Part shown: in pieces, positions 5,931 through 10,895 of the stretch
Layout of the letters: every line of letters starts with the position of its first letter
How positions within the stretch are numbered: the first letter of the stretch is position 1
From: Pectobacterium cacticida
GTDB lineage: Bacteria; Pseudomonadota; Gammaproteobacteria; Enterobacterales; Enterobacteriaceae
Assembly (NCBI RefSeq): GCF_036885195.1
Contig: NZ_CP133656.1
Coordinates: 1,356,101-1,380,100 of the forward strand
Length of the DNA stretch: 24,000 nt
Direction: 5' to 3'
The notes under the pieces: model-generated
Databases searched by the model: none
What the model was told of the DNA's origin: nothing
What the model saw: only the letters and a program-made list of their open reading frames with translations
Made by a program: the position numbers and the translations under genes

Positions 5931-6920
5931 TTAAATGTTAATCTTGCCTATCGGCTCTAAGTTAATGCAGTGTTGCAACAAATCGCCAGGGAAAACGAAC
6001 ATATTCATATTGGCTTGTAATTGATGAGTTGAGCTTAGCGACGCGCTAGCGTTTGATGCGCCCGATAGCTGGACGGCGACGTAAGCAAAATCTTCAATGG
6101 CTTGGGCCAATTCCGGATCAATGGGTTGGTTACGATTACTGACGAGGTTCTCTTCAACGGCGGGATCCGCCGCTATGGCGGTATGAAGAGCCTGGCAAAG
6201 ATCTTCATCGCTTTCATATGCTACATTTCCGGTCAGTAACTTGGCCGTATTTCTCGCGGCTAGCGGTTGCTGTGCAATAAATGCGACGGTTTTATCCAGT
6301 AAACTTTTGTTGTCTGCGCTGTTTAGTAGCGGATGCCGGAAATGTAGTTGGTATGCATCCCCAGCCTCTTCGAAGCATTGCGCGACAAACTGTGAGCAAA
6401 CCATCGGCAATTTCCCAGGGTTTTTATGCCGCTGAAGATATTCGCTCAGAGTGGCGGTTAATTTCTTCAGAATACGCAAAGTGACCTTCTGCGCGAGAGT
6501 CGGGAGAGAAACCTTTTTATACAGCAGTAATAGACCGATAATATATAGGCTGGCATTATCATAAGGCTCCAAATTATTAAGATGTTGCGTGCCAGCATCG
6601 ATCACTGGTGATAGTTCCTGCTGTGATGTATGACGAAAAACATAGATAATTCGGTCGTGAAAACGGGCTAATGCCTCATTTACCGTAACCTGAGGAGGAC
6701 TTTCCTCAATAATAGTAAGCGGCTGCTTTTGGTATAGCATTGCCGCGTGGCTAACTGGCGCGTTGGTGAGAAAAGTTATTGCCCATGAGATAAAACTCCC
6801 TTTTTCCGGGGAAAAAAGTAATACATCACCTTCCTGCAAGGCCTGAAGTGACAGTGTTTTTGTCAGTTCAGGCGCTAAATATTGTTCCCTATTATCGATC
6901 AACTTATCGCTAGCGTTCAT
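5931..6920 (-). CDS. Permuted papain-like (NlpC/P60 superfamily, YaeF/YiiX C92-type) amidase/peptidase homolog with insertions; no signal peptide
   Basis: The motif order is typical of the circularly permuted family. LQEGDVLLF is followed by VSHAAMLY (His), then EPYD, then MVCSQFVAQCF (Cys), and the C-terminal FVFPGDLL. An AAGGAA SD lies 5 nt before the ATG. Confidence 0.6.
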   Translation of the reverse strand: MNASDKLIDNREQYLAPELTKTLSLQALQEGDVLLFSPEKGSFISWAITFLTNAPVSHAAMLYQKQPLTIIEESPPQVTVNEALARFHDRIIYVFRHTSQQELSPVIDAGTQHLNNLEPYDNASLYIIGLLLLYKKVSLPTLAQKVTLRILKKLTATLSEYLQRHKNPGKLPMVCSQFVAQCFEEAGDAYQLHFRHPLLNSADNKSLLDKTVAFIAQQPLAARNTAKLLTGNVAYESDEDLCQALHTAIAADPAVEENLVSNRNQPIDPELAQAIEDFAYVAVQLSGASNASASLSSTHQLQANMNMFVFPGDLLQHCINLEPIGKINI

Positions 6921-6974
6921 GATGTTTCCTTGTTATCCAGTGGATGGCGCGGTAAGGCTTGTCGTCAGAAATAA

Positions 6975-7874
6975 TTAAAATTCATTGACGATCAACATTC
7001 CGTTTACGGAATTTCTCCCGCAGGCGAAAACGGATATTTTTTCATTATTACAATATAGCCCTGCGCCGTAGTCAAAACTGGCATTTTCTTGCATCGATAA
7101 TTTTTTATAAGAAAGCGGCGTTGATACCATTATTGACTGATTCGTTGCGCCGTCCCACTCTATTAACGAAAGGTAGAGATAGTTATCGCTGCCAGAAGTC
7201 GCGAACTCAACCATATAAATGCGATTCTCATTGTCACTAATTAAATTGAAGTTTTGAATGTTTTTCCCTTCTTGTGCCGCATAACCTTTAAATGAATCAG
7301 GGCTTTTCAACGTAATTTTCTGAATGCTACTCTTATCGATTGTTCCGGGAATATGACAGCTAAAAAAATGGAACTTGGTACCACTTTCGTAGGCCATCAC
7401 GAAATAGATTGTATTGTTTTGATTATCTTGGATGCGGGTCATTGCCGCAGCCATACATGATATTTTTTCGTTTTCCCAGAGAACCTTTTTTCGAGAGCGA
7501 CTGGGATCACTGATATCAAAGAGTGCTAATTGCGTATCTTCATATTTAGACGTCAGAAAGGTATGTTCCTGTGAAGCCGTTATCAAATAATTATCAACAA
7601 TCTGACAGCCTCCAGGGTGATTAAATCGTCCGGTATTGGTTTTTATTGTGTTGTTATAATCATTTTTTGTTATATCCGCTACATAAATGAGCGCGCCATC
7701 ATTACCGATATCATTATGCGTAAAAAAGTAATAATTGTCATGTCTGGCCATGCCTTGCATATGGTATGCATCGGTTTTCCATTTGGTGTTAAACCCTGCG
7801 ATTCTTCTTACCTCGGGGGTCGTTTTTATTTTGTCGAATGCGGCAATCACATTGGTAATTTTCTGATCGGGCAT
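6975..7874 (-). CDS. Hypothetical protein, beta-rich with about five-fold internal periodicity (possible 5-bladed beta-propeller); no signal peptide
   Basis: A long ORF that is clearly more AT-rich than its neighbours. An AAGGAAG SD lies 6 nt before the ATG at 7874; the track start at 7898 is a TTG without an SD. Five segments each end in hydrophobic strand pairs. I recognise no family. Confidence 0.7.
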   Translation of the reverse strand: MPDQKITNVIAAFDKIKTTPEVRRIAGFNTKWKTDAYHMQGMARHDNYYFFTHNDIGNDGALIYVADITKNDYNNTIKTNTGRFNHPGGCQIVDNYLITASQEHTFLTSKYEDTQLALFDISDPSRSRKKVLWENEKISCMAAAMTRIQDNQNNTIYFVMAYESGTKFHFFSCHIPGTIDKSSIQKITLKSPDSFKGYAAQEGKNIQNFNLISDNENRIYMVEFATSGSDNYLYLSLIEWDGATNQSIMVSTPLSYKKLSMQENASFDYGAGLYCNNEKISVFACGRNSVNGMLIVNEF

Positions 7875-8034
7875 AATAGCTTCCTTTAAGTTAATCAATA
7901 AACGTTGATATTAATTATGGCTGCTTTGTTCGCACGGCAATAATGCCGCATAGTCACAGTCGCTTTACCTCGGTAAGTCAGGCGCGTCATACGCTGTGAA
8001 CGCGTCCATTTCTACTCTTTACGTCGCCGTGTGG

Positions 8035-9347: not shown

Positions 9348-9357
9348 ATATTTACAG

Positions 9358-9374
9358 ATCGCGGAAAATCGCGG
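9358..9374. repeat. Direct repeat ATCGCGG-aaa-ATCGCGG with a 10-bp period
   Basis: Read directly from the sequence, 70 bp upstream of the regulator ATG. It is a possible operator; its function is unknown. Confidence 0.5.
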
Positions 9375-9443
9375 TAAATAGGGAATGAAGTAAAAATAAG
9401 TATTTATATATTAATCAAATTGTTGGTTATTTGGTTCTCCATT

Positions 9444-10895
9444 ATGAATAGGTTGTTAAATTTTATTACACAGCGGGAAGGGGAGGCGATCAATCTGCAT
9501 CGAGAATTGGTCTGCCGCCCGGCCATTAACCCTGAACACGGTGGTGAAGGGGAAGAAGTCAAGGCGCGTTGGATAGAAGAATGGCTCTATGATAATGCGC
9601 TGTGCCGCGTGCAACGAATGGATGCTTTAGATGTGCAGGCAAATAATAAATTAAGGCCCAATCTGGTCGCGCATTTTCTTCCGGCGGGGGCGAAACATAC
9701 GCTATGGATCGTGACGCATCTGGATGTCGCCGCCCCTGGGCCACTGGCGCATTGGGTGAGCGACCCCTTTACATTACGTATTGATGGCGACCGATTATAT
9801 GGCCGGGGCGTCGAGGACAATAATCAGGGAATTGTGTCGGCGTTATTACTGCTGGATGCCATGAAACAACTGGACATTACGCCCCCGATGGGAATAGGGG
9901 TAATTTTTACCAGCGCCGGTATTACTGATTACACCAAAGGCATCGGCCATATTTTACGTAAGGTTCCGCAGTTGTTCCGGGCCGACGATCTGATTGTGGT
10001 GCCGGATTATGGCAATGAGAACGGCAGCATTATTGAGATTGGCGAAAAGCGTAACGCGTGGGTGCGTATCGATGTCAAAGGGCGGGAATACCATGCGGGT
10101 TTTAGCGAAGGGGCCAACTGTTTTGAAGCCGCTGCCCGCTTTATTGCCCGCCTAAAGCCTATCCGCCGCCGATACGCGTGTCCCGATCCGTTCTTTTTCC
10201 CGCCGACATCAACGATCACGCCGACGCATGCCGAAACGAACTGCACGGGGTTAAACCACGTTCCTGCCAATTTTGTGTTCTACCTCGACATTCGCCTGAT
10301 GCCGAACTGCGCGTTGGAACCCGTCATGGCCGATCTTCAACAGTTGGCGCGTCATATTGAAAAACAGGACGGAGTGCTATTTACCTTTTCCTATGTCGAG
10401 ATTACGCCAGACGCGCCGATTACGCCCCGTCACGCGCCGGTCATTCGCTTGCTTTCCGACGCCATAGAGCAGGAATTAGGGGTGATGCCCCGTCTGGTTG
10501 GCGTTGGCGGCGTGACCATGGTGTCGGTGATCCGTTCTCTGGGGTTGCCTGTGGCGGTGTGGGGGATCCAGCAATCCCGTAAAAACCAGATCAATGAGAG
10601 CATCAGCCTGAAAGCGCAACTGGCGCAAACGCGTATTTTTGCCCGGATGTTATATGCCTCACCGCAAAAGCGCGCCAAGCCGTCGCCTGATTTGCTCACC
10701 GCAGAGAAAACGCCGCATATCACGCCGGCGGAACAGGCTGTCGCCAAGCTGGTGGGGCTTGGTATGAATAATGAGGATATTGGCGAACAGCTCAGTGTGA
10801 GTGTCAACACGATTCGAACACACCTGAAAAACCTGTATCGTAAGACGGGCGCACGTAATCGGCGTGAGTTGCAACGGTTGTTTATTGTGCAATAA
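9444..10895 (+). CDS. Fusion regulator: M20-family (ArgE/DapE-like) peptidase-like domain plus a C-terminal LuxR/GerE-type HTH
   Basis: The N-terminal ~400 aa carry M20 motifs: GGEGE, RPNLVA, VTHLDV, YGRGVEDNNQG, VVPDYGNENGSIIEIGEK and VGVGG. The C-terminal 60 aa, TPAEQAVAKLVGLGMNNEDIGEQLSVSVNTIRTHLKNLYRKTGARNRRELQ, form a LuxR-type HTH. Start set at ATG 9444 (MNRLL); the track uses the TTG at 9420. Confidence 0.85.
   Translation: MNRLLNFITQREGEAINLHRELVCRPAINPEHGGEGEEVKARWIEEWLYDNALCRVQRMDALDVQANNKLRPNLVAHFLPAGAKHTLWIVTHLDVAAPGPLAHWVSDPFTLRIDGDRLYGRGVEDNNQGIVSALLLLDAMKQLDITPPMGIGVIFTSAGITDYTKGIGHILRKVPQLFRADDLIVVPDYGNENGSIIEIGEKRNAWVRIDVKGREYHAGFSEGANCFEAAARFIARLKPIRRRYACPDPFFFPPTSTITPTHAETNCTGLNHVPANFVFYLDIRLMPNCALEPVMADLQQLARHIEKQDGVLFTFSYVEITPDAPITPRHAPVIRLLSDAIEQELGVMPRLVGVGGVTMVSVIRSLGLPVAVWGIQQSRKNQINESISLKAQLAQTRIFARMLYASPQKRAKPSPDLLTAEKTPHITPAEQAVAKLVGLGMNNEDIGEQLSVSVNTIRTHLKNLYRKTGARNRRELQRLFIVQ

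Follow-up and report, generated by a model that had tools for sequence, protein, structure and literature searches.

In enterobacterial pathogens that infect animals or plants, omptins are important proteases of the cell surface. They are typically horizontally acquired surface virulence factors, and the described members (Pla, PgtE, OmpT and CroP) are under global control such as that exerted by PhoPQ. Among twelve Pectobacterium species, an omptin has been reported solely in P. parmentieri and P. wasabiae (PMC6963963). The stretch of DNA analysed here, hereafter the window, covers 24 kb of the 4.12-Mb, single-contig genome of Pectobacterium cacticida and contains an omptin gene between galF and gnd, divergent from a gene whose product joins an M20 metallopeptidase-like domain to a LuxR/GerE helix-turn-helix (HTH) domain. 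In the open-access literature searched, we found no omptin with a dedicated divergent regulator or an M20::LuxR partner and no description of an M20-HTH pseudoenzyme architecture. Nor did we find in it any description of a system with this gene combination, as an earlier note on this DNA, written from the sequence, had supposed.

On balance we favour the view that the region between galF and gnd is an insertion carrying an omptin and a sensor-regulator, the latter controlling the genes for the omptin, for a beta-rich protein of unnamed family (hereafter the orphan) and for a papain-like protein via TCACCCC-type repeats. The core of this predicted module would consist of a Pla-like omptin and a divergently transcribed, cytoplasmic one-component regulator, in which a catalytically dead but still dimeric M20 domain would act as the sensor and the C-terminal LuxR/GerE HTH would bind DNA. 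The binding sites would be the TCACCCC-type repeats in the 425-bp spacer, namely a composite element reading toward the omptin gene and an inverted pair 5' of the regulator's own promoter, and through them the regulator would control the omptin promoter and probably its own. The orphan and papain-like genes would be co-transcribed with the omptin gene as distal operon genes, giving a unit of omptin, orphan and papain-like genes plus the regulator. As guessed from the M20 ancestry, the ligand might be a small peptide or an N-acyl or N-succinyl amino acid, possibly a fragment of the cell wall or of a host peptide. Sequence comparison shows which genes are present, that they form an insertion, that the omptin–regulator pair is conserved, that catalytic residues are lost, and that the motif is unique and how it is distributed; from these features we infer that the regulator binds DNA and senses a ligand, that the genes share a transcript and which way the regulation runs. 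The evidence is set out below.

A LuxR-type regulator with a degenerate M20 domain

The regulator gene starts with an ATG at position 9444 that is conserved among homologues. Its M20 domains, which are DapE/ArgE-like, were recognised by PF01546 (55.5 bits) and PF07687 (46.5 bits), and the first 412 residues matched the M20 metallo-hydrolase family PRK13983 of NCBIfam with 363 bits against a cut-off of 333. Public NCBI annotation lists the regulator proteins as 'M20 family metallo-hydrolase'. The GerE HTH (PF00196, 41.1 bits against a cut-off of 23.5) covers residues 435–486 of the open reading frame (ORF) of 491 amino acids (aa), and PDB searches matched it to VpsT and EsrB. Only M20 domains were found N-terminal to the HTH. 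An autoinducer-binding domain, as in quorum-sensing LuxR proteins, and a receiver domain, as in response regulators of the NarL/FixJ kind, are both missing, which sets the protein apart from either class.

When aligned with DapE of H. influenzae, the regulator was found to keep H67 and D100 and to have E134 replaced by Gly, E135 by Ile and H349 by Asn. E163 of DapE is matched by a Val, although a conserved Asp follows two residues later. An alignment of 21 sequences showed the catalytic losses to be common to all 13 HTH fusions, with the general-base Glu changed to Gly or Ala, the ligand Glu to Ile or Leu and His349 lost; canonical M20 relatives of 410 aa in the same alignment retain the D-E-E residues and the His. 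The nearest non-fused relatives, of ~470 aa and with signal-peptide-like N-termini, have the same losses as the HTH fusions. P0136–P0157 form a clade of such HTH-less dead-M20 proteins, again of ~470 aa and with N-termini resembling signal peptides. The general-base Glu and a complete set of di-zinc ligands (H67, D100, E135, E163 and H349) were not present in the regulator. Because the catalytic Glu-Glu and the metal-binding His are lost, the M20 domain is classed, on its residues, as a pseudoenzyme, and it probably works as a sensor in a dimeric protein, the dimerisation domain having been kept.

The regulator is predicted to be cytoplasmic because it has no N-terminal hydrophobic segment. 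One distant relative, a dead-M20::LuxR variant of 578 aa (P0160), differs in having a signal peptide and, between its M20 part and the HTH, a hydrophobic span. This topology would put the sensor in the periplasm, which hints at an extracytoplasmic ancestral ligand.

The divergent omptin

The omptin scored 306.6 bits against the Pfam cut-off of 22.6 and covered profile positions 3–283 of 283. A PDB search identified Pla as the closest solved structure (259 bits), and in the alignment with Pla both catalytic pairs are kept, MDDYDW being identical and D-N-H replacing D-E-H. By these features the protein is a predicted full-length, Pla-like surface protease with both catalytic pairs. The omptin ORF has some 12–14 additional residues in the n-region of the signal peptide (window 8977–9018) and begins MKTQRSLSRKRHIKAPL; relatives of 313–317 aa begin MKTPL.

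Repeated elements in the divergent control region

The earlier note had described an AT-rich divergent region followed by an M20::LuxR regulator, and the base composition and the domain scans bore this out. All three exact matches of the window to GGRGGTGA fall in this region. In the whole genome the 8-mer occurs 178 times, and both the sole cluster of at least three copies within 250 bp and the sole inverted pair lie in the omptin–regulator spacer. Alignment of the spacers of seven taxa revealed three conserved blocks. The composite element, the predicted operator toward the omptin gene, has the consensus C[CT]ATCACCYYTTTYTCTGATT-N6-7-TCACCCCC across these taxa.

Whole-genome scans were carried out with the core TCTGATT-N5-8-TCMCCCC on five regulator-bearing genomes and five regulator-less congeners, the reversed pattern serving as the control. 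The core element gave a single match in the window genome and one match each, at the omptin spacer, in G001 and G018. Pectobacterium sp. B1J-3 (G169) and Brenneria roseae (G177) each had two matches, one of them at the omptin. The second B1J-3 copy lies upstream of a cytolysin gene, 85 bp after which the papain-like gene begins, and the second B. roseae copy lies 80 nt upstream of the papain-like gene; in both, the orientation to the downstream gene is as at the omptin. The reversed pattern had no match in the scanned regulator-bearing genomes, and the core element had none in the five regulator-less congeners. Because the composite element stands only at the promoters of the omptin gene and of the papain-like gene (or the cytolysin–papain pair), with no occurrence in the five regulator-less congeners scanned, this unique cis element probably places both genes in a single regulon. 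A single regulon had been proposed in the earlier note from the divergent layout; the part that now has support is an element that is unique, shared with the papain-like gene's promoter and absent from the five regulator-less congeners, the regulation itself being a prediction from it.

In the window, the orphan and the papain-like gene have no composite element of their own, and the spacer between the omptin gene and the next gene showed no significant structure (z = 0.27). Since no terminator is detectable after the omptin gene, the orphan and papain-like genes are most likely co-transcribed with it, and, as they also lack an element of their own, they would be expected to be the distal genes of an omptin operon.

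A second feature of the spacer is an inverted pair, TCACCYCC-N~22-26-GGRGGTGA across taxa, followed by a T-run, which may be a second operator or an RNA hairpin. Its arms are kept in the seven taxa with C/T and G/A changes, and it folds with −24 kcal/mol (z = −4.0 on the plus strand and −5.1 on the minus strand). TTTACAG and GATCRCGGTAAA are conserved in the seven taxa, and TTTACAG...GATCRCGGTAAA reads as a putative −35/−10 pair for the regulator gene; a consensus promoter scanner made no call at 9351–9380. Two copies of a 20-nt sequence, TGATA(A)TCCGTTTTT(T)ATATT, also lie in the spacer as a direct repeat with 80% identity, one just 5' of the omptin start codon (window 9035–9054) and the other straight after the inverted pair (9333–9352).

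The motif was also found with distant regulator homologues of 48–59% identity (L023, L027, L043 and L028), which come from alpha- and betaproteobacteria-like loci. L043 has five direct copies in the interval that separates a 59%-identical homologue from an autotransporter gene, and inverted pairs lie just 5' of a 56%-identical homologue adjoining a kps capsule operon (L023) and just 5' of a 48%-identical homologue on a Bartonella-named contig (L027). In a Corticimicrobacter metagenome-assembled genome (MAG; L028), a 58%-identical homologue adjoins an ETX_MTX2 (aerolysin-like) gene at 6701–7729, and a TCACCCCCCCC site is present at 7853, in the upstream region of that gene. The L028 contig also has an AraC gene and a cluster of two DUF2589 genes like that of B. 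roseae. Across 12 loci the density of the 7-mer was 4.66 per kb in regulator-adjacent spacers versus 0.12 per kb elsewhere, a ratio that overstates the independent evidence because the loci are related; the cross-class cases and the whole-genome uniqueness are independent of this ratio. The neighbours seen next to the regulator comprise the omptin with the papain-like hydrolase and the beta-rich protein, a cytolysin-like gene, autotransporters, a kps operon and an ETX/MTX2-like gene. We tentatively suggest that dead-M20::LuxR proteins could make up a so far undescribed family of one-component regulators that sense ligands, use a TCACCCC-type operator and act as local switches for surface or host-interaction factors in at least three proteobacterial classes.

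The omptin–regulator pair and its variable cargo

Among the 27 other species of the genus the regulator was present in 2, and a sample of 400 species of the family likewise gave 2, which belong to other genera (Pectobacterium sp. B1J-3 and Brenneria roseae); the scan for loci related to the regulator reached close relatives only. Nine Pectobacteriaceae loci could be read, and in every one an omptin, or what remains of it, lies beside the regulator and divergent from it. These loci are the window, L015 (G001) and L014 (G018) from P. parmentieri and a sibling species, the Logan contigs L016/L017, L019 from B1J-3, L018 and L021 from two B. roseae subspecies, L042 from B. tiliae and L022 (6999–9453) from a Symbiopectobacterium MAG. 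One protein encoded by G001 is 100% identical to a protein listed by NCBI for P. parmentieri. The pair lies at the galF–gnd junction in this genome, B1J-3, both B. roseae subspecies, B. tiliae and the MAG. In L015 and L014 it is flanked by genes for MesX, a MetE-like protein and DUF4751 on one side and for AMP-binding and DltD proteins on the other, and L016/L017 have another flank, with a DUF932 gene after the papain-like gene in place of galF. L016 and L014 share 80% DNA identity over 2986 contiguous bases spanning omptin, spacer and regulator. In the Symbiopectobacterium MAG the omptin is present only as fragments and the regulator match is in two pieces, which overlap (residues 1–325 and 305–483); the module in this symbiont genome looks like a decaying one.

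The genes downstream of the omptin vary. They are the orphan and the papain-like gene in the window and L016/L017, DUF4751 in L014, L015, L019 and L042, and two DUF2589 genes, two small ORFs and a phage-type lysozyme gene in L018 and L021. In B. roseae and B1J-3 the papain-like gene sits across galF from the pair, and in the two P. parmentieri-type loci no copy was found up to 10 kb from the pair. The identical four-gene order occurs in just one other lineage (L016/L017), and the orphan is restricted to two lineages. The constant unit is the divergent omptin–regulator pair, which was found in two different chromosomal contexts. The question raised in the earlier note, whether the four genes co-occur elsewhere, is answered in part: the same order exists on L016/L017 beside another flank, and only the omptin–regulator pair is constant.

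The cytolysin gene of B1J-3 (8507–9916 of L019) lies between galF and the papain-like gene and encodes a thiol-activated (cholesterol-dependent) cytolysin, with Pfam scores of 409 and 126 bits. Upstream of this gene stands the composite element also seen at the omptin. The family is unusual for a Gram-negative, plant-associated lineage.

An accessory insertion at the galF–gnd junction

Window positions 4800–12600 were used as a DNA query against all 27 other Pectobacterium species sampled. DNA identity to these congeners was 77–83% for galF and 85–88% for gnd. Homology stops at about window 5850–5869, being lost ~10 bases past the galF stop codon, and is regained at window 10950. By its score, which is under the NCBIfam cut-off, the left-hand gene is a GalF/GalU-like gene, and the match begins at residue 33 of a GTG-initiated ORF. 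In 25 of the 27 species galF and gnd abut, 87–110 bp apart. The other two species (G015 = L034 and G020 = L035) have 1.2–1.4 kb of other cargo at the junction, an AbiEii toxin gene with a small partner gene in one and a PRiA4_ORF3-family gene in the other. The B. tiliae junction carries additional small genes (BrnA, HTH_37 and PRiA4_ORF3). The block between positions 5860 and 10950 is an accessory insertion in a normally empty junction, and its accessory nature, surmised in the earlier note, is upheld by the comparison with the 27 congeners and by the sparse distribution of the regulator.

The earlier note had also taken the block for a cassette standing in place of a polysaccharide cluster. 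Its description of the interval was accurate: galF and gnd are both on the plus strand, all coordinates hold, and family scans and the ORF map showed no glycosyltransferase, flippase, polymerase or sugar-nucleotide gene between 5860 and 11080. The replacement is another matter, as it presumes the layout of E. coli, in which the sugar genes of the O-antigen/capsule locus lie between galF and gnd; such genes are absent from this interval, and in Pectobacterium the junction is normally ~100 bp. Because galF and gnd abut in congeners, the block is an insertion and not a replaced O-antigen cluster, and because both genes are directly adjacent in 25 of the 27 congeners, galF–gnd is not an O-antigen slot in Pectobacterium. 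Polysaccharide genes are located at 3–4775, upstream of galF, in the form of a GT1 glycosyltransferase gene and an AT-rich ORF followed by rmlD/rmlC/rmlA on the opposite strand.

No integrase, IS element, transposase ORF or tRNA-like att site was found within 5860–10950, nor were flanking direct or inverted repeats found at the insertion boundaries, so that the insertion shows neither the genes nor the repeats of an integrative mobile element. Entry by homologous recombination through flanking galF and gnd sequence is more likely than entry by a mobile element. PADLOC defence-system models gave no meaningful match.

The features of the locus are listed in Table 1. As the earlier note had reported, the three minus-strand genes are separated by gaps of 160 and 54 bp; the Shine-Dalgarno sequences that it noted before the second and the third read AAGGAA.

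Table 1. Features of the galF–gnd region of the P. cacticida window (coordinates are window positions).
Feature	Position	Strand	Remarks
galF	4960–5859	+	Left flank of the insertion; NCBIfam GalF 470 bits, curated cut-off 534 bits
5.1-kb insertion relative to congeners	5860–10950		galF–gnd junction
Diverged permuted NlpC/P60 (YaeF/YiiX-like) Cys-His hydrolase, putative, 329 aa	5931–6920	-	Assigned from fold and motifs
Orphan, 299-aa beta-rich protein	6975–7874	-	Unnamed family; 39% G+C
Omptin outer-membrane protease	8035–9018	-	Pfam Omptin (PF01278, MEROPS A26)
Divergent control region, 425 bp	9019–9443		Between omptin and regulator; ~37% G+C
Composite element, 35 bp, CCATCCCCTTCTTTCTGATTTGCCTTTCACCCCCC	9109–9143	-	Reads toward omptin; predicted operator; conserved in seven taxa
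Inverted repeat TCACCTCC-N26-GGAGGTGA, then T-run	9294–9347	+	Candidate second operator or RNA hairpin
Promoter-like TTTACA-18 nt-TAAATA for the regulator gene	9351–9380	+	Putative; read from sequence
M20::LuxR regulator, 483 aa	9444–10895	+	Peptidase_M20, M20_dimer and GerE domains (Pfam, NCBIfam)
gnd	11081–12487	+	Right flank of the insertion; NCBIfam gnd 765–772 bits

Beyond the insertion, the O-unit genes at window 1–4775 are AT-rich (26–31% G+C) and run into the oppositely oriented rmlD-rmlC-rmlA; rmlB was not seen in the window. Directly downstream of gnd (window 12946–21372) are yjbF/G/H exopolysaccharide genes, followed by a gene for a BglG-type antiterminator and two genes for GGDEF proteins (MASE2-GGDEF and dCache-GGDEF).

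The orphan and papain-like proteins

An AlphaFold2 model of the papain-like protein (pLDDT 87) was matched by Foldseek to 3kw0, a B. cereus C92 peptidase (E = 4.6e-4), and to 2if6, E. coli YiiX, with a probability of 1.0 each. His58 and Cys175 are invariant in 38 homologues, and the family profile aligns both the His and the Cys motif to 3kw0. Scores were under the family cut-offs, at 12.4 against 27 bits for PF05708 and 22.8 against 279 bits for NCBIfam YaeF. The earlier assignment as a C92 permuted papain-like protein thus holds for the fold and the His58/Cys175 pair and falls short of the Pfam and NCBIfam thresholds. From the model and the motifs, the protein is predicted to have a permuted NlpC/P60 fold with the His before the Cys and to act as a hydrolase. 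The family comprises ~200 proteins across many phyla. In Salmonella enterica (L036–L039) a homologue of ~50% identity is carried on an element (ParA, DnaB, DUF2857) resembling an integrative and conjugative element (ICE); the genes that come next encode a 765-aa protein with no family assignment and a PF11860 muramidase. The 765-aa neighbour was considered as a relative of the orphan and rejected, as the two are unrelated.

For the orphan, a word-indexed search returned one close homologue (69% identity), likewise adjoining an omptin and a papain-like gene. The description as an orphan given in the earlier note did not survive an exhaustive HMMER search, which identified 106 remote relatives with H-x-Q-G and N-H-P-G-G-x-Q motifs in common, of which H-x-Q-G and H-P-G-G-x-Q are invariant, although neither the protein nor its family profile had a Pfam or PDB match. 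DUF6454 matched weakly to one of the relatives and not to the orphan itself. The orphan was not found in the 40 relatives searched, the plasmid collection held no match for it or for the papain-like gene, and a metagenome scan with a narrow orphan alignment returned two short contigs without a papain-like neighbour. In some relatives the domain forms the C-terminal part of proteins of 500–1035 aa with repeat-rich N-termini, and in one it lies ahead of PLAT domains. The N-termini of the long relatives carry repeated LQV-GL...LAAWQD units, which may be lectin- or propeller-like, and these architectures suggest that the orphan domain could be an effector module or an enzymatic one, attached to other modules that serve in targeting. 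A structure model of the orphan built from a two-sequence alignment was unreliable (pLDDT 46).

Alternative explanations

Several observations weigh against the proposed module. The compared genomes are relatives, so the counts are interdependent. The orphan and papain-like proteins have no signal peptides, and the papain-like family is mostly found as a lone gene in unrelated contexts. In L016 there is a weak hairpin 3' of the omptin gene, and the downstream genes there may be a separate unit. The arms of the inverted TCACCCC pair are 12 to 26 nt apart depending on the taxon, and the T·G combinations of two taxa suit a plus-strand RNA hairpin better than a palindromic operator. The conserved Asp of the PD-x-G motif may replace E163 as a metal ligand. 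The region could be a recombination hot-spot collage in which only the omptin and the regulator are linked, the orphan and the papain-like gene being passengers with promoters of their own. The cargo 3' of the omptin indeed varies even among close lineages (DUF4751 in P. parmentieri, B1J-3 and B. tiliae; two DUF2589 genes with a lysozyme gene in B. roseae), the papain-like family occurs alone in the Salmonella ICE, Entomomonas and Maridesulfovibrio, the G+C content of the orphan (39%) is very different, and two distant orphan relatives have no papain-like neighbour. We nevertheless regard such a collage as unlikely, since the composite element precedes the papain-like gene even where that gene lies across galF from the omptin and occurs nowhere else in those genomes, since the gene order of L016 is identical despite its other flank, and since no terminator is found 3' of the omptin gene in the window.

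The TCACCCC repeats might instead represent RNA structure (a terminator or attenuator in the regulator leader, or a small RNA) or the site of another factor encoded on the chromosome, with the M20::LuxR protein acting elsewhere or not at all. That the inverted pair forms a stable hairpin (z = −4 to −5) followed by a T-run, that a compensatory C-G to T-A change and T·G intermediates occur in its arms and that the arm spacing is variable would all fit such a structure. The five direct copies at L043, however, share one orientation and are unable to pair, the composite element is not self-complementary, and Rfam had no match across 5800–11100. The motif moreover accompanies the regulator in different proteobacterial classes, and none was found in the five congeners that lack it; taken together, these points make this explanation improbable. 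A still active M20 domain, for instance a mono-metal deacylase that couples catalysis to DNA binding as PutA and BirA do, appears very improbable: H92, D125 and the conserved Asp of PD-x-G are kept and the PRK13983 match is above its curated cut-off, but the general-base Glu, the adjacent ligand Glu and His349 are lost in every fusion, and the canonical relatives retain all three.

Should the proposed omptin–regulator module prove correct, control by a dedicated regulator whose sensor is a pseudoenzyme would be new for omptins, and the regulator would be a compact, testable case in which an enzyme fold has been turned to ligand sensing. By tying two genes of unknown role to a surface-protease regulon, the motif evidence would also give a first functional handle on them. 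For the junction, the knowledge taken from E. coli is corrected in that galF–gnd in Pectobacterium is a recurrent landing site for small cargo and not an O-antigen slot.

Comparison with known systems

The galF and gnd flanks and the repeated exchange of cargo in several genera are shared with the O-antigen/capsule locus of E. coli, Salmonella and Klebsiella. In contrast to that locus, galF and gnd normally abut in Pectobacterium, the sugar genes lie upstream of galF and the cargo described here is not for polysaccharide. The predicted fold of the papain-like protein and the order of His before Cys are those of YaeF/YiiX (MEROPS C92, PF05708); unlike these proteins it is ~130 residues longer, has helical insertions, lacks a lipoprotein signal and scores below the cut-offs. 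The omptin resembles the known members (Pla, PgtE, OmpT and CroP) in its full length and its catalytic pairs, but whereas these are globally controlled (PhoPQ), the window omptin is paired with a divergent M20::LuxR gene. The regulator has its closest parallels in MocR (aminotransferase-like::GntR), AraC::DJ-1/PfpI-like proteins, PutA and BirA, in which an enzyme fold is likewise joined to an HTH, and by this likeness it would bind a small molecule akin to the ancestral substrate. It differs from all of these in that its sensor is an M20 metallopeptidase fold minus the catalytic residues and its LuxR/GerE HTH is C-terminal.

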